A DNA stretch of 64,000 nucleotides, taken from Gammaproteobacteria bacterium. GTDB taxonomy: Bacteria > Pseudomonadota > Gammaproteobacteria > GCA-001735895. Positions 1 to 12,784 of the stretch are shown here, piece after piece (within the stretch, counting starts at the first letter, position 1; the number at the start of each line of letters is the position of its first letter). The stretch is from positions 8,132 through 72,131 of the forward strand of contig JAAEMR010000044.1 of NCBI GenBank assembly GCA_024225395.1, written 5' to 3'. Under the pieces are notes generated by a model. The model saw nothing but the letters and a program-made list of their open reading frames with translations, searched no databases and had not been told where the DNA came from. Made by a program: the position numbers and the translations under genes.

Positions 1-383
1 TCAATGCTGCTGATGCAGATGGTTCTAGCGAGATTCAAAACGTATTTGATGAGCTGGGTCGGATTGCCGGTCGTCCCTGGGTGATGTTATCGGCTGGTGC
101 TGGTAAAGCAGAATTTCGCAATGTATTAAAGCACGCGTTTAAAGCTGGAGCTTCCGGATTTCTCGCGGGTCGTGCGATCTGGCTGGATGCTTTTAATGCT
201 TACCCCGACTGGGATCAGATTCGTACCGATCTTGACGGTGAATCTAGTGATTATTTGTCAGATATCTCTGCATTAGCAAATCGAGAAGCGCATGATTGGT
301 CAAAACATGCCTGTTACGGTGAGCAAGGTGCTGTTTTCTCACCAGCTGATGCCAGCTTCCGCCATGATTATGATGAACTTTAG
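1..383 (+). CDS. Class I aldolase, DeoC/LacD family (tagatose-bisphosphate / sulfofructose-phosphate aldolase-like); 3' fragment of a gene that starts upstream of the window
   Basis: The ORF is open from the window edge. The C-terminal motif ...PWVMLSAGAGK...AGASGFLAGRAIW... matches the conserved C-terminus of LacD/YihT-type aldolases. The gene is followed by co-directional sugar-metabolism genes. Confidence 0.5.
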   Translation, partial: NAADADGSSEIQNVFDELGRIAGRPWVMLSAGAGKAEFRNVLKHAFKAGASGFLAGRAIWLDAFNAYPDWDQIRTDLDGESSDYLSDISALANREAHDWSKHACYGEQGAVFSPADASFRHDYDEL

Positions 384-416
384 ACCATAATTATAGGAAA
401 AAATTTTTAGGACACA

Positions 417-1805
417 ATGATGAAAATAGGCGTTATACCCCTTGGTCGTCCCACTTTTGACGTAGAGCTGGCTGAAAAAAAGCTGGCGCAAATGTTAAAG
501 AAATTAGCAGAAAGCGGAAATGAAATTATCGGCTCGGATACCCTTTTGTTTGATGAGCCTGGCACCCAACAGGCGATGACTGAGTTACAAAGTCAATCGG
601 TTGATCAAATACTGATACTGCAAGTTACTTTTACAGACGCTTCGATGGCGGTTGCTGCAGCATCGAAATTTGATCAACCTTTATCTATTTGGGCTATACC
701 TGAACCGCGCTTGGGAGGACGGTTGAGACTCAACGCTTTTTGTGGACTTAATTTGTTTAGTCACGCACTGAGCCTTTGTGACAAAACTTTTTCCTGGTTG
801 TATGCAGATCCCGATGAAGATGTTGAATCAGACTTAACGGCTCTTTTATCCGAGCAGCGATTATCAGAGCATTTACAGCCAATCTCCGCTGAAAAGTTTT
901 TCTCAGAAGCGGGTCAAAAAGTAACTGAGTCTATCAGTGGGCGTCGTATCGCGCGCATTGGAGAACATCCGACGGGTTTTGACTCTTGTGCTTATTCGGA
1001 AGAACAAATCACAAAACTGGCGGGTGTGACGGTTGACGCTTTGAAACTTGATGAGCTTTTTAGTGCTGCCAGTTCGGCATCCACACAAGAAACCGCGGTT
1101 GTACGTAAACTGGCGGAATCATCACTTTCAGATTTAGATGAAGTAAATCAAAAAGAGCTGGATCATTCTTTAAGGTTAAAAGTAGGTCTGGATAACATTC
1201 GAACAAAAGGCAACTACGATGCTTTTGCTATTCGATGTTGGCCAGAGACATTTACAGAGTATGGTGGAGCGGTCTGCGGCCCTGCATCCATGATGGGTGA
1301 AGCAAAGGTACCTTGCGCCTGTGAAGCTGATGTTTATGGTTCATTGAGTCAACTCATATTGCAGGAGGCTTCAGGGGAAGCCGTCTTTTTGACTGATTTG
1401 GTTGATATGGACAAAACGGATAATACCGGTGTTTTTTGGCACTGTGGTCAGGCACCAGTATCGATGCGTGCGCCAGAAGTAAATGCGACAGCTACTATTC
1501 ATACTAACCGAAAAATGCCACTTCTTTATGAATTTTCACTCAAAGCGGGGCCTGTGACTATGGTGCGTATATCACAATCCTTTAACCAGCCAAAAATGAT
1601 TTTAAGCTATGGTGAAATATTGAGTAGGCCTATGTCATTTACCGGAACATCCGGAGTGGTTCGCTTCGAACGTGATACGGGCAGTGTGCTGGAGGATATT
1701 ATCAATTCGGGACTGGAGCATCACATGGCGCTTGCTTATGGAGATCATCGTGAAGTACTACGCAGCGTGGCTGCGGCGATGAAACTACCGTTACTGGAGT
1801 TATAA
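417..1805 (+). CDS. Sugar isomerase of the L-arabinose/L-fucose isomerase (AraA/FucI) family
   Basis: 462 aa. The motif VPCACEADVYGSL resembles the metal-binding core of AraA/FucI-family isomerases (AVCEADV...). The reading frame sits tightly within the operon. Confidence 0.55.
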   Translation: MMKIGVIPLGRPTFDVELAEKKLAQMLKKLAESGNEIIGSDTLLFDEPGTQQAMTELQSQSVDQILILQVTFTDASMAVAAASKFDQPLSIWAIPEPRLGGRLRLNAFCGLNLFSHALSLCDKTFSWLYADPDEDVESDLTALLSEQRLSEHLQPISAEKFFSEAGQKVTESISGRRIARIGEHPTGFDSCAYSEEQITKLAGVTVDALKLDELFSAASSASTQETAVVRKLAESSLSDLDEVNQKELDHSLRLKVGLDNIRTKGNYDAFAIRCWPETFTEYGGAVCGPASMMGEAKVPCACEADVYGSLSQLILQEASGEAVFLTDLVDMDKTDNTGVFWHCGQAPVSMRAPEVNATATIHTNRKMPLLYEFSLKAGPVTMVRISQSFNQPKMILSYGEILSRPMSFTGTSGVVRFERDTGSVLEDIINSGLEHHMALAYGDHREVLRSVAAAMKLPLLEL

Positions 1806-2828
1806 ATGAATATTACTGCTTTTGGGAAAATGCCTGATGGCAGCGTGGTTGACTGTATCTCGCTCAGTGCAGGATCACTTACCGCAAAGATTCTAACTTA
1901 TGGTTCGGTTTTACAAGACCTGCGACTGGATGGGCATAGTCCATCACTGGTGTTAGGGTTTGATTCCTTAGAGCATTACCTCGATCATTCCCCTTACTTT
2001 GGAGCTACTGCAGGCCGCTGCGCTAATCGCATAGGACATGGACACTTGCTGCTTGAAGGTGTGGAATATCAATTGGATCAAAACTTTCTTCAACGACACC
2101 ACCTCCATGGCGGTGCCATGGGTATTGGAAAAAGGTTATGGAAGATTGAAAAAGCAAACACTGAACGGGTTACTTTATCGATTAAATTAGCCGATGGTGA
2201 AATGGGTTACCCTGGCAATATGGACGTAGAGGTGACGTATCGGTTATTGCCAGCAGGAGTGTTAGATATTTGTTTCGAGGCTACCACGGATAAAACGACG
2301 CTGTGCAATTTAGCCCATCATAGTTATTTTAATCTTAGCGGACGAGATTCTATTCTTGATCACAGGCTGCGAGTAGAAGCCGCTAGCTTTACTCCTGTTG
2401 ATGATGAATTGATTCCTACAGGAGAGGTGAGGTCGGTAACTGGTAGCATTTTTGATTTACGTCAGTTTAAAGATGTAGGGTCGATAGTCCATAAACAGGG
2501 AATTGATCATAACTTTTGTCTGTCTGATCAACGTCAATCACTGCGTTCAGTCGCTTTCCTGGAAAGTCCAAGCTCAGCTGTGAGTATGACAGTTCGCACC
2601 ACCGAACCGGGATTACAAATCTATGATGGTGCGCGCGTAGCTCCACCAGTACCTGGCCTTGATGGTTTGCATATGAAAGCCTATGCAGGTATCGCACTGG
2701 AACCACAGATATGGCCAGATGCGATTCACCACAGTCATTTTCCACAAGCTGTTTTACATTCTGATGAGGTATATAAACAGCGCACTCAATATATTTTTAG
2801 CAATAAAACTGGGGGTTTGTCATCATGA
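1806..2828 (+). CDS. Aldose 1-epimerase (mutarotase) family protein
   Basis: 340 aa. The N-terminal region ...DGSVVDCISLSAGSLTAKILTYGSVLQDLRL is typical of galactose mutarotase-like proteins. Its start codon directly abuts the upstream stop codon. Confidence 0.7.
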   Translation: MNITAFGKMPDGSVVDCISLSAGSLTAKILTYGSVLQDLRLDGHSPSLVLGFDSLEHYLDHSPYFGATAGRCANRIGHGHLLLEGVEYQLDQNFLQRHHLHGGAMGIGKRLWKIEKANTERVTLSIKLADGEMGYPGNMDVEVTYRLLPAGVLDICFEATTDKTTLCNLAHHSYFNLSGRDSILDHRLRVEAASFTPVDDELIPTGEVRSVTGSIFDLRQFKDVGSIVHKQGIDHNFCLSDQRQSLRSVAFLESPSSAVSMTVRTTEPGLQIYDGARVAPPVPGLDGLHMKAYAGIALEPQIWPDAIHHSHFPQAVLHSDEVYKQRTQYIFSNKTGGLSS

Positions 2829-3916
2829 TTCGTTATGGCTTAATTGGTTCCGGGATGATGGGGCAGGAACACATTCGAAATATAAAACTGCTGGAAGATG
2901 CAGAGGTAGTAGCTATTGCTGACCCAGATCAGGAGATGCGTGATCTTTCTTTCAAAACCAGTAACGGTACGGCGAAGTTATATAGTGATTACAAGCGGAT
3001 GCTGGATGATGACATATGCGATGTGTATGTGATTGTCGCTCCTAATGACACGCATCATCAAATACTTCTCGATACTATACCGGCTAACAAACCTATTTTG
3101 TGTGAAAAACCGCTTTGTACAACCGTAGAACATTGCAGGGAGGTAATCGCTCTGGCAGAGGATTACGCTACAGTGGTTTGGGTTGCCATGGAATATCGAT
3201 ACATGCCACCCGTGCAACGATTATTATCCGAGGTCGATAAAGGCACTACTGGTAGTTTGCAAATGATGAATATTCGCGAACACCGGTTTCCTTTTTTGAC
3301 CAAGGTGGGAGACTGGAACCGCTTTAACAAAAGAACCGGGGGTACGCTCACCGAAAAATGTTGTCACTTCTGGGATTTGATGCGTTTAACATTAAACAGC
3401 GATCCGATTCGGGTGTACGCGTCAGGTGCAATGGATGTTAACCACATTGATGAGCGTTATGATGGGAAAGTACCGGATATAATTGATAATGCTTTTGTCA
3501 CGGTTGACTTTGAAAATGGTAGCAGGGCTATGCTGGATCTTTGTATGTTTTCAGAGGGTTCCTATTGGCAGGAACAGATATCGGTGACCGGTCCCAAAGC
3601 TCGTGTAGATGCCTATATTCCCGGGCCTGCGCGTTTCAGCACAGATGGAAAAGAGCGACATGCTCAATTGAGTATATCTGATCGTAAAAGCAAAACCGAG
3701 ACTAGAGTAGATGTGATAGTTGATGAGACAATTTTACAGGCAGGTGACCATCACGGGTCGTCATTTTATCAACATCAAAAATTTCTGGATATGGTACAAA
3801 GTGGCAGTTCAACGCCAGAGGTTAGTTTGATCGATGGCTTATGGTCAGTGTGCGTAGGGGAAGCAGCTGAACGCTCTGCACGAACCGGGCAGGTCGTGCA
3901 GCTTGATCGGGTTTAA
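2825..3916 (+). CDS. Gfo/Idh/MocA-family NAD(P)-dependent oxidoreductase
   Basis: The N-terminal Rossmann motif GLIGSGMMGQEHIRNI and the EKPL motif are present. It shares a 4-bp ATGA overlap with the upstream gene. Confidence 0.75.
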   Translation: MIRYGLIGSGMMGQEHIRNIKLLEDAEVVAIADPDQEMRDLSFKTSNGTAKLYSDYKRMLDDDICDVYVIVAPNDTHHQILLDTIPANKPILCEKPLCTTVEHCREVIALAEDYATVVWVAMEYRYMPPVQRLLSEVDKGTTGSLQMMNIREHRFPFLTKVGDWNRFNKRTGGTLTEKCCHFWDLMRLTLNSDPIRVYASGAMDVNHIDERYDGKVPDIIDNAFVTVDFENGSRAMLDLCMFSEGSYWQEQISVTGPKARVDAYIPGPARFSTDGKERHAQLSISDRKSKTETRVDVIVDETILQAGDHHGSSFYQHQKFLDMVQSGSSTPEVSLIDGLWSVCVGEAAERSARTGQVVQLDRV

Positions 3917-3943
3917 CCCGGGTTAAACTCGAATTTTACAGCT

Positions 3944-4807
3944 TTATTTGTTTGCGACTACCTTGAATGAGGAAGAAAAATCTTCTGCGCCAAAACCTTT
4001 TTCCATGCCCTGGTCATAAACCTCGACCACTCTGTCTATAGTTGGTAATTCTAACCCGGCTTCTTGCGCCATTTGTTGAGCAATATGAACATCTTTGTGC
4101 ATGTTTTGCAGGCTAAAAGCAGCCGGATATTCATTTTTGTCAATATTAGGCCATTTAGCGTTGAGGTAAAAATTTCCAGCTCCACCATAAGAAATTGCTT
4201 CAACAAACTGGTCAGTTTTTATACCTTGATGGTGTGCCATGGTAATCATTTCGTTAACACCGTTCTGGATTTCTCCAACCAGCATGTTATGGCAAATTTT
4301 CATCACCAGACCTGAGCCATTATCGCCAAGATGTATGACGTTATTTCCCATACAAAGAAGTATGTCCTTCACCGTTTCATCAAAAACCGATTTGTTACCA
4401 CCAGCATAAATGCCAAGTGTTCCGTCTATTGCTGCGGGCTGAGATTTTACAACCGGGCAGTCGAGCATTGTTGCTCCTTTGCTTTCGACTTGTTTGGAAA
4501 TTTCTATAGATGCTGATGGTTCAATAGTGCTCATATCAATGGTTATCTTTCCAGCGGTAAGAGCAGGTAATAATTCTGAATACACAGCGCGGACATCCTT
4601 GCTGGCAGTGACCATGGTGATGATAACATCTGCTTTTTCACCAACTTCCTTGATCGAAGAAGCACTCTTTGCTCCGGCTTTGACCATTGTCTCAGCTACT
4701 GCTGGTTTTCGTGCAAATACCAGTACCGTGTCTTCTTTACGTTTGTTGACTAAATTCATTGCCATAGGAGTACCCATGGTGCCTAAACCGATAAATCCTA
4801 TAATCAC
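3944..4807 (-). CDS. NAD-binding beta-hydroxyacid dehydrogenase (3-hydroxyisobutyrate dehydrogenase / tartronate-semialdehyde or sulfolactaldehyde reductase family)
   Basis: IGFIGLGTMGTPMAMNL dinucleotide-binding motif plus the central catalytic Lys region (GSGLVMKICHNM). Length 287 aa. Confidence 0.8.
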   Translation of the reverse strand: MIIGFIGLGTMGTPMAMNLVNKRKEDTVLVFARKPAVAETMVKAGAKSASSIKEVGEKADVIITMVTASKDVRAVYSELLPALTAGKITIDMSTIEPSASIEISKQVESKGATMLDCPVVKSQPAAIDGTLGIYAGGNKSVFDETVKDILLCMGNNVIHLGDNGSGLVMKICHNMLVGEIQNGVNEMITMAHHQGIKTDQFVEAISYGGAGNFYLNAKWPNIDKNEYPAAFSLQNMHKDVHIAQQMAQEAGLELPTIDRVVEVYDQGMEKGFGAEDFSSSFKVVANK

Positions 4808-5100
4808 TCTTCACCTCTCATCGATGTTTATTTATGTTGAAGATGTACTTTTTAGTGCAAAATTAGTCTCCGAGTAATGGCTTTTATGCACCATAATTGG
4901 ACCAATTATAAAAATAAATATTATACTCAAATTGTTAAAATATTTATAGTATTATATAAGACTAGTTGACTATTGTTGAGTTAGGGAAATAGTCTTATCT
5001 TAAAGCTTGTCTTCGGCTATAAGGTGTCAACTAGCATTCAAATTAGAACCTTGGAAAGGGTACTGACAAATTAACTGTCTTTTCGCGATAATTTACAGAT

Positions 5101-5340
5101 GACGAATTCCCTCCTGAAATCATCCAATATGCAGTGTGGCTTTACTATCGATTTAATCTCAGTCATCCGGATATTAAAGGTCTATTAGCTCATCGCGGAA
5201 TCATTGTCAGTCGAGAATCCATTCGGTTATGGTGTAATAAGTTTGGATCTAAATATGCGACCAGATTGCGTAAGAAGCATCAGGGATATGGCGACACTTT
5301 TTTATTTTCGACAGCTTCGTCAAATAAATGGCCAGCCTGA
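5101..5340 (+). pseudogene. IS6-family transposase remnant (N-terminal portion only, no start codon, truncated 3')
   Basis: EFPPEIIQYAVWLYYRFNLSHPDIKGLLAHRGIIVSRESIRLWCNKFG...LRKKHQGYGDTF follows the conserved N-terminal pattern of IS6 (IS26/IS257-like) transposases. The frame then decays and is overlapped by the neighbouring gene's 3' end. Confidence 0.5.
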
Positions 5341-5362: not shown

Positions 5363-7828
5363 TTAATGTTGCTGAATAATGACCTGGTCGCTGCCATTAC
5401 AAGATATCATTACATGACTGCCGCTACCATCGGTAAAATGTGCATTGGTAGGGGAGTCACATCCCGTTAAAGATATGACTGTACTATTTGTGATGCTGGC
5501 ATCGGCATCGATACTCGTAACAGTGTAGTTGTTCTCGTTAAAACCAGTAGTGAGTGCCAATACTCCATCTCCATCGGGATCGGGGATGAGGTCAATATCA
5601 AGTGGACTTCCTCCCACATCAGCTGTGTTATGGATCACAGGCGTTACCTCTGGATTTGCCCAGCTTATGGTAGAAATGGTGTTGTCTCCAAAGTTTGATG
5701 TCACGCACACTCCACGTAGGCAGCGTAGTCGCCATGGATACATCCCGACCGAACCCAGATTTTGATCAGTATTGTCAATGTGCTCTTCTCTTGGATCAAA
5801 CAACCATAATGAGCCGTTAGTTTCTTCACCATTCTCAACAAGTACCAGTGCAGGTCCATCGAAACCACCAACAACGCTGACAACATCACCACTTTGTCGC
5901 CATTCGCCACTGGTTCGTATAAAACCTGCAGGTCGCCTCCAATCCGTTACCTCGCTATCCCAGCCAAGAAAGCTGACTGAATCACTGCCATTGTCTACCA
6001 CCAGATATCCGGTGTCGCGACCATTTATATCGACGGGCCCCGGGACAATGTCGGTAACACGACTGTTAGGGTAAGGGTGAAACTGGGACATTCCCCATTC
6101 GCCAGAATCCGAATTATATGAGGTTTCACTGTAACCGCCGCTGCCGGTATAGAATACCATCCATTCTGCTGTATCTCGATCAGACTCAGGAGCTACCAGG
6201 AATACACCACCCAGATACGGGTATAAACCTGCGGGCATCGACAGGCGTTCCACTTCGGTGCCATCGTGTAAATCCCAAACTCCAATTTGATCAGCACCTG
6301 ATACAAGGGCATAGTCACGGTCTGCAGGAAGATCCAGAACATCCAAAGACTGGTGTCTTATAGGTGATTCATCTGCAAAGGGATCGCCTGCAGACCAGTA
6401 ATTATCACGCACATTAAGTCCGATATAACCTACGTATGTTTCTGGTGCAGTCAGCTGGAATGAGTCTATCCAGCCAATACTCTCAGGGTCCTTGCAGCTT
6501 ACATGGACAGTGAGTAAATCTTTAGCCATGTAGAAACCTTCATCCTTTGGAAATACCCTTAGCTCAAATCCAATAGTCGTATCACCAGCTTTTAAACATT
6601 TATAACTAAGGTTTTGGGTATTAGCGCCTATTACAGGATTTTGGATCTCTATGGCATCATATTTCTTATTGGGAAACAGAGTGATCATTTCCGCTCCAGC
6701 ACTGGTAGCAGGATTGCCTAATTCTGTTTTCGATACAATGCCTGGATTACTGTCCAGGATCCAGATTTCGTATTCATTAGTGTTGTCTAATGCAATTTCA
6801 GTAATGGCAATTTTGAATGACTCCTCTAGTGTCTTAGTTACTTTGCTGGGGGCGAGTAAAAAACTTGTTGCGGGTCCGGATCCATAAGGAGAGATTATTG
6901 AAGTGGCCCCTGAATTGCTATCAGGCCCTATACAGATAATCCATTTGTCTTGTCGCTTAGTTACTATATTGGATAGTTTAAAGCCTTTAACTAACTTGAA
7001 AGTGCCATCTGAATACATGTCTTCATAGCCAACACTGAAGTGTGGTTTAGCCAGGCCTGGTCTTAAGCATTCCAGTTTCACTGTTCCCGATAATACTGAG
7101 GCTTGGCTTGCAACCAATGAGCCCATATCTATGGGCATTTCTTCCAAAATTGCTAATGGATCTGCTAAATCCACAGATCCATAAAATGCTATTCGCTCAG
7201 CACTGATATCGGATTCAGCAGAATGAGTAACCATGGCATTAACATTAAACTTCTGACCAACCTGTGCGACACCAGGGATTCCAGTTATTTTAAATCGATC
7301 ATAAAGACCTAATACTACGGCTATAGTGGAGAAATGACTCAGTTCACCACTTAAGCTGGTGATCCCAGTATTCTGATCTATTGATAATGTTACATTATCC
7401 AATAGCTCAATAATGCTATTGGATGAGGTGAGTATCGCCGCAATCGCACTACCTGCATCGTCATCTTCAAGTATTGACAACTCAATTGGAATACTAATTG
7501 TAATTGGCTTTTCCAGGGTTAAACCAGAAGGCCCCAGTTCATACGCAAAAATTGTATCAATACCTTCAAATTCTTCGGGAAAATCAACAGGATTTAGTTT
7601 AGTGACGCTGATATCAACTGTCTCAGTTAATGCATCTGCCGGTATCTGAAGACTAAGCAGTCCATCCGCGGAAGAAATAGCTCCCCCTTCAGCACCGACT
7701 GTAACGATGACGGGAGTATCCGTGTTTATGTTATCGTTATTGCTTCCACCACCACAGGCAGCTAAAACGATAGAAAAAGATAAAATGATAATTAAACGGA
7801 AGGCCTTAATTAAGTAAAGAACACCCAT
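5363..7828 (-). CDS. Large predicted lipoprotein (821 aa), surface or secreted, function unknown
   Basis: Signal peptide with a lipobox (…SIVLAAC GGGSNND). Ser/Thr/Gly/Asp-rich beta-type composition. Confidence 0.6.
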   Translation of the reverse strand: MGVLYLIKAFRLIIILSFSIVLAACGGGSNNDNINTDTPVIVTVGAEGGAISSADGLLSLQIPADALTETVDISVTKLNPVDFPEEFEGIDTIFAYELGPSGLTLEKPITISIPIELSILEDDDAGSAIAAILTSSNSIIELLDNVTLSIDQNTGITSLSGELSHFSTIAVVLGLYDRFKITGIPGVAQVGQKFNVNAMVTHSAESDISAERIAFYGSVDLADPLAILEEMPIDMGSLVASQASVLSGTVKLECLRPGLAKPHFSVGYEDMYSDGTFKLVKGFKLSNIVTKRQDKWIICIGPDSNSGATSIISPYGSGPATSFLLAPSKVTKTLEESFKIAITEIALDNTNEYEIWILDSNPGIVSKTELGNPATSAGAEMITLFPNKKYDAIEIQNPVIGANTQNLSYKCLKAGDTTIGFELRVFPKDEGFYMAKDLLTVHVSCKDPESIGWIDSFQLTAPETYVGYIGLNVRDNYWSAGDPFADESPIRHQSLDVLDLPADRDYALVSGADQIGVWDLHDGTEVERLSMPAGLYPYLGGVFLVAPESDRDTAEWMVFYTGSGGYSETSYNSDSGEWGMSQFHPYPNSRVTDIVPGPVDINGRDTGYLVVDNGSDSVSFLGWDSEVTDWRRPAGFIRTSGEWRQSGDVVSVVGGFDGPALVLVENGEETNGSLWLFDPREEHIDNTDQNLGSVGMYPWRLRCLRGVCVTSNFGDNTISTISWANPEVTPVIHNTADVGGSPLDIDLIPDPDGDGVLALTTGFNENNYTVTSIDADASITNSTVISLTGCDSPTNAHFTDGSGSHVMISCNGSDQVIIQQH

Positions 7829-7990
7829 GATGTTTAACCTCTATTTATTTAAAGGCTACTCTCACCATGAATCAAAAACAATTCAAGATGGATATAGAAT
7901 TGACCTGTATCAAAGGCTATAAATGGACCATTGCGGGTATCGAGGTTGTCACACAGAATTGACCGGTTCACGCCCTGAGTCATTCACCTT

Positions 7991-8231: not shown

Positions 8232-9494
8232 TTATTTTAACTTATGGTGCCAGATATTATTCAGGTTTAGACTCTGTTCTTTTCGAGGAATAACAACAAT
8301 TCCGCTCCTCGTTACGTGATAAAGTTGCTTGTCTTTTTCCTGATCATAACCTATTACGGTGTTTGCAGGAATTTTGACGTGTTTATCGATGATGGCTCGC
8401 CGAATTTTACATCCTCGACCTATCTCTACTTTATCAAATAATATTGAATCGCTGATGTCGCAATAGCTATTAACCTTAATATTTCGCCCTAGCACGCTGT
8501 CGTAAACTTTGCTGCCGCTTAGGATAGTTCCCTCGGAGATAATGGAATCCACTGCCATGCCTCTGCGACCATCGTCATTAAAGGCAAATTTTACCGGAGG
8601 AGAGCTTAGTTCAGCAGTTCTTAGCGGCCACTGATCATTATAAAGATTAAAATTTGGTGAAATACTTTTTAAATCCATGTTTGCTTCGAAGAAATCATCG
8701 ATGTCTCCAACATCTTTCCAGTAGTCTCTTTCCTCCTGAGTAACCGACCCCGGTACTCTGTTCAGGCCGAAATCATAAGCGAAAACTTTCATCCTGTGGC
8801 ATATATCAGGCAGTATCGTTCTCCCGAAATCATGATCAGTATTCATTACCGCATCACTCTTGAGTTCTTCTAGCAGTACCTCAGTATTAAAAATGTAGTT
8901 TCCCATCGATACCAGACATTTACCAGGATCGTTCGGTATAGTAACAGGCACTTTAGGTTTTTCGTAAAACTGCTTTACCTTCCAGTCCTCATCAATCTCG
9001 AGGCAACCGAATTTATACGATTCTTCCTTGTCGATGCACAAAGCTGATACAGTTGCATCGGCATTTTTCTTTTCATGGAAGGTGATCATCTGGCTCACAT
9101 CCATACGGTAAATATGATCCGCTCCGAATATCGCAACATAGTCTGGCATGGCTCTTTCTATGAGGTGGATATTCTGGTAGATAGAGTCAGCGGTCCCTTT
9201 GTACCAACTTTCACCAACTCTCATTTGTGCAGGAACAAGAGTAATAAACTGATTTCTAAGCAGCGAGCCGAATTGCCAGCCATTTTCAAGATGCTCTACC
9301 AGTGACTGAGATTTAAACTGCGTGAGTACGTAAATCGAACAGATGCCGGAATTGACTAGATTGCTAAGGATAAAATCAATTATCCGGTATTTTCCACCAA
9401 AAGGAACTGCCGGTTTCGCCCTGTCCTTAGTCAGTGGATAGAGCCTGGTTCCTTTTCCACCGGCCATGATTAATGCTAATACACTTTTTTTCAT
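8232..9494 (-). CDS. glgC: Glucose-1-phosphate adenylyltransferase
   Basis: 420 aa. N-terminus LALIMAGGKGTRLYPLTKDRAKPAVPFGGKYRIIDFILSN and the overall length match GlgC. Confidence 0.9.
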   Translation of the reverse strand: MKKSVLALIMAGGKGTRLYPLTKDRAKPAVPFGGKYRIIDFILSNLVNSGICSIYVLTQFKSQSLVEHLENGWQFGSLLRNQFITLVPAQMRVGESWYKGTADSIYQNIHLIERAMPDYVAIFGADHIYRMDVSQMITFHEKKNADATVSALCIDKEESYKFGCLEIDEDWKVKQFYEKPKVPVTIPNDPGKCLVSMGNYIFNTEVLLEELKSDAVMNTDHDFGRTILPDICHRMKVFAYDFGLNRVPGSVTQEERDYWKDVGDIDDFFEANMDLKSISPNFNLYNDQWPLRTAELSSPPVKFAFNDDGRRGMAVDSIISEGTILSGSKVYDSVLGRNIKVNSYCDISDSILFDKVEIGRGCKIRRAIIDKHVKIPANTVIGYDQEKDKQLYHVTRSGIVVIPRKEQSLNLNNIWHHKLK

Positions 9495-10306: not shown

Positions 10307-12784
10307 TCAATAGAGATAAACCGCTCCAGCACTTTTTGCCGAATCATTACTCTGGTCACCATTGACCCCAATACTGTCGCTGCTTTCCCAGCGTGCACCG
10401 ACTGCCAGTTTCTCACCATCATCACTTAGGGTGACACTGATTCCAAAATAATCGTCATTTCCGGTATTACTCGCTTTTACGTATGCCTGCTGGCTCCAGG
10501 TAATACCGCTACGAGTAAATACATACGCGGCGCCTGTCTGGTAGCCGGTATTATTCTGGTTACCATTTAGACCTATGGCATCGCTGTCTTCATTAGCTGA
10601 ACCTGTAGCGAGGATATTACCATCGCTACTCAGCGCAATACTGCCACCAAAATAATCTCGTTCATCGGTATTGCTGGCCTTGATGTAAGCCTGTTGCTCC
10701 CAGCCAGCATCGGTATCAATAAACAGATAAACAGACCCTGAATATATAGCATCATTATTGAACTGCTCACCATCTATACCCGTGGCATTGCTGGCTTCTT
10801 TTGAGCCTACGGCAAGCGTTTTCCCATCACCACTGATAGCTAGATTACCGCCAAACATATCACTTGCTTCTGCATTGCTTGCCTTGAAATAGGTTTGCTG
10901 ACTCCAGGCGGAGCCGCTGTAGTTAAACAGGTAGGCTGCACCTGCTCCTGAGGCTGTATTATCTGCCTGATTACCATCAATTCCGGTTGCAATGCTATCC
11001 TCGCTTGCTGCACCCACGATAAGGGTATTGGCGTCATCACTCAGATCGATACTTCCTCCAAACGAGTCCCCTGCATCAGTATTGCTCGCCTTGATATAGG
11101 CCTGCTGGCCCCAGGCCGAGCCATCGTAATTAAACAGGTAGACTGCACCGGCACTTGTGGCTGTATTATCTGTCTGATTACCATTAATACCGGTGCTGGC
11201 ACTATCTTCTTTCGGAGCACCCACGGCCAGGATCGTACCGTCATTACTCAGTGCAATGCTATAACCAAACCATTCATCTGGATCAGTGTTGCTCGCTTTC
11301 ACATAGGCCTGCTGGTACCAGTTACCTGCGCTATATTCAAACACATAGGCTGCACCGGAATTTAGATGAGCGAAATCATCACCATTATTTGGATAGTCAT
11401 CGACACCGGTGCCATTACTGTCTTCATAGGGAGCACCCACGGCCAGAATGTTGCCGTCGTAGCTAAGTGCGACCTTAAGGCCAAACTGATCCTCTGCACC
11501 GGCATTATTTGCCTTGACGTATCCTCTTGGTATCCAGGTGCTTCCGCGCTTGAAGATGTACACTGCTCCCGCTGATTCCTCCACGTTGAAATTGGGTGCT
11601 TGGTCACTGTCTTCACCCGGCGCCCCCACAGCCAGGGTTCTACCGTCACCACTTAATGCAACACTACTAAAACCATCACCAGCTTGGGTATTAATGGCCT
11701 TAAGGTATCCAATCGCTTCGATCATCACTGGGACGATGCTTTCTGGTGCTGAAGATGCAAGTAAAACCCCACCTGCACCATAGGCCTCGACCATGTAGCT
11801 TGCATTGACCCAGTCAGCCAGGTGCACCGAGACCTCATCCCATGAAGAAAAATTCTCTGCACCGAAATCATAGAAATTAGTCAAAAGCTGGGTATAACCC
11901 GACGCACCATCTGGATTGACAAAAAGCTTGTAATAGACCGTGCCCTCATAATCAGACCAGTCAAACCACACTCTATTGACGTATGAGGTATCTTCTGGTT
12001 TGACGACATTAAGTTCAAGAACATCATTAACCGTTACTGTGACAAGTTGCGTGGCGAGATAAGCGCCGTCAGTCGCACCGACCTGAACCTGGTAGACGTT
12101 ATCCTGATCACCATCAAATGGCGATTCGTAATCGGGTATAGTGATGAAGCTTAACCCACCGCTGGCGCCATCAATGGTAAAATCGGCACCATCATAGCTA
12201 TTCAAGATTGTGAATATAACGTTGTCCGATTGGGGATCGGTTGCACTTATTGTGGCCACCGCTACATTATTTTCCTGAACAGAAAAATCGCTTCCTGAGG
12301 TAAACTGGGGCGCTTCGTTACCACCAACAATACCGCACATATACTCAGTAGTGGTGATCTCGCTGATATCGAGCAATCCATCGTTATCAAGATCCAGCCC
12401 GGCATCAATCTGCAGACCGTCAACGATACAATTAGCCCCGGCAGGTTCGTCACTGACTGAAACCAGTGCAGTATTACCATCAGCACCATCAGTACCATCA
12501 GCACCGTTGCACACCTTCTCAGCGCTATCGACTTCACCGTCGTCGAGCACGCCATTGCCGTTTTCATCGATGCCGGCCTCTACAAGGATGCCACCATAAG
12601 GACAGTCGATATCGTCAGCTGCCAATACAGTGGTGCGGGCGGCTGACGATAAATCGCCGCTTTCGGAGACTGGGCTATCATCGTCATTACCAGCGCTTCC
12701 ACTGCAAGCGGAAAGAAATATTAACGAGATAAATAAAACGAACTTAAAGAATTCTTCAGGGGAGTTTGAGTTTGAGCTGTCCAT
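10307..12784 (-). CDS. Surface lipoprotein with a cadherin-like domain and tandem FG-GAP-type (integrin-alpha-like) repeats
   Basis: Signal peptide plus lipobox (LSAC). Cadherin-like segment (VQENNVAVATISATDP…VTVTVNDV). Seven or more roughly 60-aa repeats of the type FG.S..LS.DG.TLAVGAP.EDS…G.NG.Q.DN….GA.Y.F. Paralogous to the C-terminal half of the 39899..45955 product. Confidence 0.7.
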   Translation of the reverse strand: MDSSNSNSPEEFFKFVLFISLIFLSACSGSAGNDDDSPVSESGDLSSAARTTVLAADDIDCPYGGILVEAGIDENGNGVLDDGEVDSAEKVCNGADGTDGADGNTALVSVSDEPAGANCIVDGLQIDAGLDLDNDGLLDISEITTTEYMCGIVGGNEAPQFTSGSDFSVQENNVAVATISATDPQSDNVIFTILNSYDGADFTIDGASGGLSFITIPDYESPFDGDQDNVYQVQVGATDGAYLATQLVTVTVNDVLELNVVKPEDTSYVNRVWFDWSDYEGTVYYKLFVNPDGASGYTQLLTNFYDFGAENFSSWDEVSVHLADWVNASYMVEAYGAGGVLLASSAPESIVPVMIEAIGYLKAINTQAGDGFSSVALSGDGRTLAVGAPGEDSDQAPNFNVEESAGAVYIFKRGSTWIPRGYVKANNAGAEDQFGLKVALSYDGNILAVGAPYEDSNGTGVDDYPNNGDDFAHLNSGAAYVFEYSAGNWYQQAYVKASNTDPDEWFGYSIALSNDGTILAVGAPKEDSASTGINGNQTDNTATSAGAVYLFNYDGSAWGQQAYIKASNTDAGDSFGGSIDLSDDANTLIVGAASEDSIATGIDGNQADNTASGAGAAYLFNYSGSAWSQQTYFKASNAEASDMFGGNLAISGDGKTLAVGSKEASNATGIDGEQFNNDAIYSGSVYLFIDTDAGWEQQAYIKASNTDERDYFGGSIALSSDGNILATGSANEDSDAIGLNGNQNNTGYQTGAAYVFTRSGITWSQQAYVKASNTGNDDYFGISVTLSDDGEKLAVGARWESSDSIGVNGDQSNDSAKSAGAVYLY

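Follow-up and report, generated by a model that had tools for sequence, protein, structure and literature searches.

Gene content of the locus

The DNA analysed here (the window) is a stretch of 64,000 nucleotides of contig JAAEMR010000044.1, from the assembly GCA_024225395.1 of a Gammaproteobacteria bacterium, with a G+C content of about 43%. This work concerns the sugar-catabolic genes at its 5' edge (positions 1–4807), which a first-pass annotation, made from the letters alone, had described as a five-gene cluster resembling sulfoglycolysis. ORF (open reading frame) calls placed these five ORFs at the same positions, and matches in Pfam and NCBIfam, together with a structure model for the isomerase, put each of them in the family that had been named, with agreement well above what chance would give. 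The evidence below makes it very likely that positions 1–4807 are the distal part of a hybrid operon of the sulfo-EMP type (sulfoglycolysis after the Embden-Meyerhof-Parnas scheme) for the catabolism of sulfoquinovose (SQ) or sulfoquinovosyl glycerol (SQGro) by a marine bacterium. The features are as follows.

1–383, + strand: 3' end of a class I aldolase gene (last 126 codons and stop); the gene starts upstream of the window
417–1805, + strand: predicted SqvD/SftI-type (AraA/FucI-fold) sulfoquinovose-sulfofructose isomerase, 462 aa, start at 417 or 420
1806–2828, + strand: aldose 1-epimerase of the GalM type (PF01263), presumed sulfoquinovose mutarotase, 340 aa
2825–3916, + strand: predicted GH188 SqgA, an NAD+-dependent sulfoquinovosidase that would release SQ from SQGro, 363 aa
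3912–3927, no strand: perfect 16-bp palindrome TTTAACCCGGGTTAAA (seen in the sequence itself), which overlaps the stop codon of SqgA
3944–4807, − strand: beta-hydroxyacid dehydrogenase of the HIBADH/GarR family (PF03446, PF14833), tentative sulfolactaldehyde reductase, 287 aa

The open frame of the aldolase (3–383, +) runs off the start of the window, and 126 aa of it are translated. Public gene calls use a 461-aa form of the isomerase, which starts at the second Met. The four + strand genes are tightly packed, with stop and start abutting at 1805/1806 and a 4-bp overlap at 2825–2828, which fits an operon. The SqgA gene and the reductase gene are convergent and are separated by a 27-bp gap containing the palindrome. 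From its sequence the palindrome could form the stem of a bidirectional terminator; it was not called in the terminator scan, as it lacks a T-run behind it.

A probable GH188 sulfoquinovosidase encoded at 2825–3916

The product of 2825–3916 is a two-domain Gfo/Idh/MocA protein, with Pfam matches in both the N-terminal domain (PF01408, E 3e-25) and the C-terminal domain (PF02894, E 9e-25). It had been taken for a dehydrogenase in the first-pass annotation; the family holds, but the function has to be revised. Searched against the PDB, the protein matched 8ZN9 (E 1e-114) and the entries 8QC2/8QC8 and 8QC3/5/6 (E 1e-107) over its full length. The 8QC2–8QC8 structures are those of FlSqgA and ArSqgA, the founders of GH188, a family of NAD+-dependent sulfoquinovosidases (PMC10755693). 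The structure 8ZN9 was deposited with Ma et al. 2025, who report RdSqgA from Roseobacter denitrificans (PMC12780224), and we take it to be RdSqgA. The three SqgA proteins have also been characterised biochemically. The identity is about 50% to RdSqgA and about 48% to ArSqgA and FlSqgA, and this range of 48–50% is just under the 54% cut-off which Ma et al. 2025 used for marine prokaryotic sqgA. The scores against SqgA structures were 361–387 bits, about 275–300 bits better than that of the best-scoring other oxidoreductase in the PDB (86 bits, E 3e-23).

The residues agree with this assignment. K95, Y124, E177, H181 and H309 align with the catalytic and sugar-binding residues K107, Y136, E189, H193 and H321 of ArSqgA. 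The sulfonate triad of ArSqgA, which consists of Arg166, the backbone amide of Leu170 and Lys172 (PMC10755693, the source of all these residue roles), is kept as R154, L158 and K160 in the motif RFPFLTK. The protein thus has the full set of eight catalytic and sulfonate-contacting residues, including the Leu that gives its backbone amide only. These results indicate that the protein is a GH188 SqgA sulfoquinovosidase, as far as homology and residue conservation can tell, and its gene becomes the strongest SQ marker of the cluster.

A GH31 sulfoquinovosidase gene, which the first-pass annotation had suggested looking for upstream, was not detected, either in the 7.9 kb that precede the window (on the contig L001 described below) or in the window's first 12 kb. 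Its absence is accounted for, since a GH188 SqgA would supply the sulfoquinovosidase role. Consistently, Kaur et al. 2023 (PMC10755693) showed GH188 genes in SQ clusters, among them sulfo-EMP clusters, that have no GH31 enzyme.

Upstream genes and the conserved context

L001 is a metagenome contig from the Joint Genome Institute (JGI) which encodes the 461-aa form of the isomerase. It matches the window with 99.755% identity across 11,018 bp without gaps and reaches 7.9 kb further upstream, and because of this identity the upstream gene content of the window was deduced from it. The gene order on L001 is a DeoR regulator, the TRAP transporter genes DctQ, DctM and DctP, a Sel1 gene on the opposite strand, a gene of the cytochrome c peroxidase (CCP)/MauG family, a PfkB kinase, the aldolase (341 aa) and then the genes of the window. 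A kinase and a transporter therefore do lie upstream, as had been predicted.

The PfkB kinase shares 37% identity with E. coli YihV (E 4e-57) and keeps Lys27-Asn109-Arg138 and Asp244 of YihV as K27, N109, R136 and D240. The Lys-Asn-Arg sulfonate triad and the catalytic Asp define sulfofructose kinases, and this triad replaces the 6-phosphate-binding triad of phosphosugar kinases (PMC8006165). As a control, the triad positions were K/V/G in E. coli PfkB and T/I/E in RbsK. Among the 72 kinases from clusters of this type, K and R were present in all 72 and N in 65. The DeoR regulator resembles CsqR (32% identity, E 3e-49). Across loci, the TRAP binding proteins share 72–90% identity, and an 81%-identical binding protein was found in the sulfo-SMO (SQ monooxygenase) cluster L109, which has the order SqgA, GntR, luciferase-like monooxygenase, aldo-keto reductase and DctQMP. 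Import of SQ and SQGro in R. denitrificans has been ascribed to a TRAP system of the SQ cluster and its binding protein (Ma et al. 2025, PMC12780224).

The context was counted in 84 loci with an isomerase homologue at 57–100% identity. A PfkB kinase was present in 74 of these loci, SqgA in 70, the aldolase in 68, DctP in 61 and the mutarotase in 45. The closest metagenomic relatives (L002–L004, with a 79%-identical isomerase) have the same gene order, without the convergent reductase. The best isomerase match among GTDB species representatives was only 65% identical. The order isomerase-mutarotase-SqgA was observed in the window, L001 and L002–L004, and the order isomerase-SqgA-mutarotase in nearly all genome representatives among L005–L084.

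These data bear on a reading of the locus as an ordinary tagatose/galactitol or inositol-type pathway, with the Gfo/Idh/MocA protein as an inositol or sugar dehydrogenase. The NCBIfam name of the aldolase is indeed 'tagatose 1,6-diphosphate aldolase', and the Gfo/Idh/MocA protein has a match to IolG, but that match is weak (123 bits versus a cut-off of 355) beside the scores to SqgA, and the K-N-R triad of sulfofructose kinases is absent from E. coli PfkB and RbsK. The cluster contains no iol, gat or lac genes. The related operons moreover continue into SSADH-type and 2-hydroxyacid dehydrogenase genes, and one of them carries SuyAB-like and ComC-like genes. A tagatose or inositol pathway is accordingly the least credible of the readings, with a very small chance of being correct. 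The first-pass annotation had kept a 6-deoxyhexose or tagatose-type pathway as an alternative, which found no support; the tagatose, inositol and neutral 6-deoxyhexose readings were all discarded on the residues of SqgA and of the kinase. The SqgA match, together with the kinase triad and the conserved context, upholds the proposal of a sulfo-EMP-type cluster.

Isomerase and mutarotase

The sole NCBIfam match of the isomerase was NF048012, the sulfoquinovose isomerase SftI (E 7e-87, 292 bits, full length). Its Pfam match to Fucose_iso_C (PF02952) was borderline (29.2 bits versus a cut-off of 29.3), and a sequence search of the PDB gave zero matches, so the structure was predicted. The AlphaFold2 model (pLDDT 89.4, pTM 0.90) was searched with Foldseek and matched L-arabinose isomerases (AraA, E 1.5e-20) and E. 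coli FucI (1FUI, E 3.9e-16), and according to this model the isomerase has the AraA/FucI fold. E303, D327/D330, H342 and H435/H436 are invariant across 30 homologues and are candidates for divalent-metal ligands equivalent to the Mn2+ site of FucI/AraA.

Isomerase homologues at 31–79% identity were all found in SQ-type clusters. On the Zymomonas mobilis plasmid pZZM402, a 37%-identical isomerase is flanked by genes for an aldose epimerase and a Gfo/Idh/MocA protein, with a class II aldolase and an SSADH gene close by. On a Chlorohelix plasmid, a 31%-identical isomerase is accompanied by genes for a PfkA-type kinase, a Gfo/Idh/MocA protein, an SSADH and a sulfite reductase. FucI-type SQ isomerases (SftI/SqvD) were described in 2020–21. 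Some clusters pair SqvD with a YihR-type mutarotase, and sulfo-EMP1/EMP2 hybrids are present in Proteobacteria (PMC9594981, PMC10665668, PMC12890257). By sequence, the isomerase of the window corresponds to this known, already described enzyme type. The first-pass annotation was thus right that a FucI-family isomerase stands in place of YihS, whereas its suggestion of a new non-orthologous variant does not hold, as the variant had been published as SftI/SqvD.

The protein encoded at 1806–2828 matched PF01263 (Aldose_epim) with E 2e-75 and PRK11055 with 241 bits (cut-off 240). It is 26% identical to E. coli YihR and is presumed to be the sulfoquinovose mutarotase.

Predicted pathway

From family identities, residue conservation and gene order we infer the following route; all its enzymatic steps and the substrate of the aldolase are predictions, and the part of the reductase is so especially. 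SQGro or SQ would be imported by the TRAP system. SqgA would cleave the glycoside by a transient NAD+-dependent oxidation at C3, elimination, addition of water and re-reduction. The GalM-type mutarotase would equilibrate the anomers, the SqvD/SftI-type metal-dependent isomerase would form sulfofructose, and the YihV-like kinase would convert it to sulfofructose-1-phosphate. The LacD-like class I Schiff-base aldolase would then split sulfofructose-1-phosphate into dihydroxyacetone phosphate (DHAP) and sulfolactaldehyde (SLA). In this lineage SLA is probably reduced to 2,3-dihydroxypropanesulfonate (DHPS) by the adjacent dehydrogenase, although this step is tentative; in most relatives an SSADH-type aldehyde dehydrogenase would turn SLA into sulfolactate. 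A DeoR/CsqR-like repressor would control the expression.

Aldolase, reductase and other points against the assignment

The observations that weigh against the sulfo-EMP assignment are gathered in this section. The isomerase score of 292 bits is under the equivalog cut-off of NF048012 (700 bits). The kinase, transporter and regulator genes lie outside the window itself and are known from L001. No exporter for a C3-sulfonate was identified. Further such points come from the aldolase and from the reductase, neither of which falls in the clade of its E. coli counterpart. The first-pass annotation had itself named such a placement as one that would refute its reading. The assignment to SQ catabolism survives these two misfits, because SqgA, the kinase triad and the conserved context are the stronger evidence.

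The aldolase is only 26% identical to E. coli YihT and groups with LacD/PRK12858. The fragment in the window matched the DeoC/LacD family (PF01791, E 2e-7) and also NF009498, and the full-length protein encoded on L001 scored 335 bits to PRK12858 'tagatose 1,6-diphosphate aldolase' (cut-off 184). Its PDB scores were 305 bits for 8TNF, 136 bits for streptococcal LacD and 75–77 bits for YihT. A place within the YihT clade does not agree with these scores. The same annotation had noted that the C-terminal motif is near that of YihT, and this was borne out. The motif AGASGFLAGRAIW is present in the fragment, and its Arg (fragment residue 57, full-length R272, window 171–173) aligns with Arg253 of YihT; the pattern SGFLAGRAxW is closer to YihT than to LacD (GVLCGRATW). 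The Schiff-base K210, encoded on L001 upstream of the window, corresponds to K193 of YihT. Arg253 of YihT binds phosphate/sulfonate. Of the phosphate site of YihT, Ser226 is kept as S245 and Ser227 is changed to Ala246, and Ala26, at the water-mediated sulfonate site, is changed to Pro31. The aldolase probably works like a sulfofructose-phosphate (SFP) aldolase, but is not classed as a YihT orthologue.

The nearest solved relative, 8TNF, is MDP0926269, a PF01791 protein from Paracoccus wurundjeri (onubensis) strain Merri, and is about 49–55% identical to the aldolase. The kinase adjoining it (L086:9081-11038, P. wurundjeri Merri) carries the K-N-R triad of YihV, which suggests from sequence that this kinase/aldolase pair acts on a sulfonated ketohexose. 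Its authors considered 8TNF as a possible sulfotagatose-1-phosphate aldolase; the kinase/aldolase pair was not induced on sulfofucose and sulfotagatose was not detected (PMC12421959). That the nearest solved relative has no demonstrated function counts against the assignment too. Since neither activity nor induction is reported for 8TNF in that paper, we did not accept it as a characterised sulfotagatose-phosphate aldolase. No assayed member of the LacD-like PRK12858 subfamily was found in the literature; the subfamily is repeatedly linked to sulfosugar genes.

The aldolase also raises the question of whether the cluster degrades another 6-sulfo or 6-deoxy hexose through a ketose-1-phosphate, for example sulfofucose through sulfotagatose-1-phosphate, or a neutral 6-deoxyhexose to lactaldehyde, which a HIBADH-type enzyme would reduce. 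LacD-type aldolases are relaxed on the stereochemistry at C3/C4, and the aldolase is nearer to LacD, a tagatose-bisphosphate aldolase, than to YihT. Its similarity to the P. wurundjeri protein considered for sulfotagatose-1-phosphate cleavage points in the same direction. However, SqgA keeps every SQ-contacting residue, including the Glu that contacts the C4-OH as well as the Arg/Lys/backbone sulfonate triad, and the TRAP binding protein is common to this cluster and a sulfo-SMO cluster. The kinase triad argues against neutral 6-deoxy sugars, and the negative findings for the P. wurundjeri pair on sulfofucose (PMC12421959) argue against sulfofucose. Another hexose as the substrate is therefore improbable, although somewhat less so than a tagatose or inositol pathway, and SQ or SQGro remains the preferred substrate.

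The reductase is a member of the HIBADH family (NAD_binding_2/NAD_binding_11, E 6e-42 in Pfam) and had been compared with YihU, the SLA reductase of E. coli. Its best NCBIfam match was 2-hydroxy-3-oxopropionate reductase (202 bits), and it scored 165 bits to the SLA reductase PRK15461 (cut-off 348). The nearest PDB entry was 1vpd, a tartronate semialdehyde reductase (159 bits), and YihU (6sm7) came eleventh (113 bits). The catalytic Lys171 of YihU is kept as K170, but Asn174 and Ser178 of the YihU sulfonate pocket are replaced by His173 and Val177. The enzyme is thus nearer to tartronate semialdehyde reductase than to YihU and does not have the sulfonate residues of the latter. It is not a conserved member of the cluster: among the 84 loci it was present in the window and L001 only, and it is absent from the relatives with a 79%-identical isomerase. 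The gene has a promoter-like site of its own at 4979–4951 and is probably transcribed from a separate promoter. An operator search that compared the promoter region of the reductase with the intergenic regions of the operon gave only two AT-rich chance 12-mers.

The operons of the relatives go on to an SSADH-type aldehyde dehydrogenase (42 loci), a type of enzyme that acts as SLA dehydrogenase, and then a D-2-hydroxyacid dehydrogenase (55 loci), and one related locus also carries Ldh_2 (ComC-like) and SuyAB-like sulfolactate genes. None of these four gene types was found in the 64-kb window. A remnant of an IS6-family transposase lies at 5092–5337 (+), about 290 bp upstream of the reductase, between this gene and a gene for an 821-aa protein. 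It comprises the N-terminal 82 codons ending in a stop and matches NF033587 at profile positions 3–64 of 202 (E 5e-15). A weak ISCR/IS91-like transposase remnant lies at the far upstream edge of L001 (1–264). Both remnants were identified with NCBIfam, and the Pfam scan of both was empty. The two remnants suggest that the cluster is a transferred or rearranged island.

Two explanations for the reductase are about equally credible. In the first, a rearrangement replaced the oxidative branch, and the GarR-like enzyme may now reduce SLA to DHPS. In favor of this, the reductase occupies the slot in which the relatives have their SLA-oxidising aldehyde dehydrogenase, and the 64-kb window showed no SSADH-type gene; its nearest characterised relatives act on tartronate semialdehyde, which is closely analogous to SLA; and an SLA reductase and an SLA dehydrogenase are known to stand in for each other in sulfo-EMP clusters (PMC10665668). 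In the second, the sulfoglycolysis operon ends at 3916, the dehydrogenase is an unrelated neighbour that a rearrangement placed there, and the enzyme acting on SLA is encoded at another site. The chance of the second is one in two, and the points in its favor are the restriction to the window and L001 with absence from L002–L004, the unconserved Asn174/Ser178 in a protein whose best families are GarR/HIBADH, the separate promoter-like site without an operator-like motif common to the operon, and the nearby IS6 remnant. We retain the label of sulfolactaldehyde reductase for the protein encoded at 3944–4807 as a tentative one, drawn from its family and position.

A Sel1/MauG-like pair linked to the TRAP genes

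Just upstream of the window, L001:4539-6365 encodes a periplasmic Sel1-repeat protein (− strand) beside a divergent di-haem protein of the MauG/CCP family, and equivalents were found in L002–L084 and L094–L157. In the MauG-like protein there are two CxxCH haem motifs, the N-terminus is signal-like, and the best family is TIGR03981 (244 bits versus a cut-off of 340). The stop of its gene overlaps the start of PfkB. Of the 84 isomerase loci, 59 have the Sel1 gene and 58 the MauG-like gene, placed after the TRAP transporter and before the kinase. All 64 metagenomic MauG-like relatives examined (at least about 60% identity) were tied to the same TRAP transporter wherever flanking sequence was available, and only a minority of them then have the kinase, aldolase and isomerase. 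In nine of the 64, an approximately 50%-identical SqgA lies on the opposite strand about 6–7 kb upstream; the one of these that was annotated (L109) is the sulfo-SMO cluster. These results indicate that the pair follows the TRAP genes rather than the sulfoglycolytic genes. MauG-like 'fusions' of 585–630 aa were rejected as gene-call artefacts that run over the antisense Sel1 gene.

Nine loci (L036, L037, L052, L056, L065, L081, L084, L090 and L091, mostly Rhizobiaceae) are without PfkB within about 8–10 kb, and in these PfkB-less loci the MauG-like gene directly precedes the aldolase. Their kinase gene could lie at another site in the genome; the alternative is that these clusters function in another way. 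The Sel1/MauG-like pair is retained even in Rhizobiaceae clusters that have lost PfkB.

The pair might, for instance, carry out an oxidative or a maturation step in the periplasm. No paper linking SQ with MauG was found, no mention of the pair was met in the SQ papers that were searched, and Ma et al. 2025 (PMC12780224), in their survey of sulfoquinovosidases, mention neither a peroxidase nor a cytochrome nor a Sel1 protein. The combined proposal that the aldolase represents a third lineage of SFP aldolases, being neither YihT nor SqiA, and that the Sel1/MauG pair is an unrecognised part of marine SQ/SQGro acquisition is speculative, and we consider it rather unlikely in this combined form.

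Variant loci and neighbouring genes

A reduced variant was observed in nine loci of Silicimonas, Boseongicola and other metagenome-assembled genomes of Paracoccaceae (L015, L017, L019, L021, L028, L035, L041, L042 and L045). Its order is PfkB kinase, isomerase, SSADH-type dehydrogenase and 2-hydroxyacid dehydrogenase, and the aldolase, SqgA and TRAP genes are not nearby. In L015, the sole locus of this variant annotated in detail, a TauD-family dioxygenase comes next. In L090, a glycosidase of the GH116 family (5650–7986) lies between DctP and the MauG-like gene. Downstream in this locus are Ldh_2, a 2-hydroxyacid dehydrogenase, a SuyB-like gene (GD_AH family) and then a small unannotated ORF, and these downstream genes would make a complete route to sulfite.

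Beyond the reductase, the window encodes two predicted lipoproteins or secreted proteins, one of 821 aa (5363–7828, −) in which Pfam found almost nothing, and one of 825 aa (10307–12784, −) with FG-GAP-like repeats and a cadherin-like region. A glgC-like glucose-1-phosphate adenylyltransferase is encoded at 8232–9494 (−). These three genes appear unrelated to the SQ cluster.

Significance and comparison with known systems

SQ is an abundant sulfonated sugar of photosynthetic membranes, with a production estimated at about 10 billion tonnes per year, and marine SQ-consuming bacteria link the carbon and sulfur cycles. If the reductase has the role discussed above, DHPS and not sulfolactate would be excreted, and different cross-feeders would benefit. 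The annotations 'Gfo/Idh/MocA oxidoreductase' and 'tagatose 1,6-diphosphate aldolase' hide SQ genes, and the cluster draws attention to the PRK12858 aldolase subfamily and to the TRAP-linked Sel1/MauG-like pair. The finding itself is confirmatory rather than surprising, as the hybrid cluster type is already known. Hybrid clusters of a FucI-type isomerase, a YihR-type mutarotase, PfkB and a PF01791 aldolase have been published (PMC9594981, PMC10665668), a survey covers sulfo-EMP clusters that contain SqgA (Kaur et al. 2023, PMC10755693), and both Kaur et al. 2023 and Sharma et al. 2023 had catalogued the combination of hybrid sulfo-EMP with GH188 at the level of Pfam families. For marine Roseobacteraceae and Oceanospirillaceae, Ma et al. 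2025 (PMC12780224) likewise cite 'a variant of sulfo-EMP (sulfo-EMP2)'.

The cluster shares with the sulfo-EMP system of E. coli (yihO-W/csqR) a DeoR/CsqR-type regulator, a YihV-type kinase with the sulfonate triad, a PF01263 mutarotase, a class I Schiff-base aldolase with the Arg253 equivalent and a HIBADH-family reductase. In contrast to the E. coli system, it has no YihS (AGE-fold) isomerase, GH31 YihQ or MFS transporters, and its aldolase and reductase are outside the YihT and YihU clades. With the sulfo-EMP2 system of Firmicutes (SqvB-SqvD-SqiK-SqiA; Liu et al. 2021, reviewed in PMC9594981) it has the SqvD/SftI-type FucI-family isomerase in common. It differs in the kinase, which is PfkB (PF00294) and not the PfkA SqiK (PF00365), in the aldolase, which is class I and not the class II SqiA (PF01116), and in the mutarotase, which is PF01263 and not SqvB (PF16161).

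The closest systems are the published hybrids (Wei et al. 2022, PMC9594981; PMC10665668). As in these, the predicted route runs from SQ through sulfofructose and sulfofructose-1-phosphate to DHAP and SLA, by a PF01263 mutarotase, a PF02952 isomerase, a PF00294 kinase and a PF01791 class I aldolase. Also shared, with the SqgA-containing sulfo-EMP clusters (PMC10755693), is a GH188 SqgA in place of a GH31 sulfoquinovosidase. Unlike the published hybrids, the present cluster has an aldolase of the LacD-like PRK12858 subfamily, its import would proceed by TRAP in place of an ABC system or YihO, it encloses a periplasmic Sel1/MauG-like pair, and in this lineage a GarR-like reductase is found instead of the usual aldehyde dehydrogenase.

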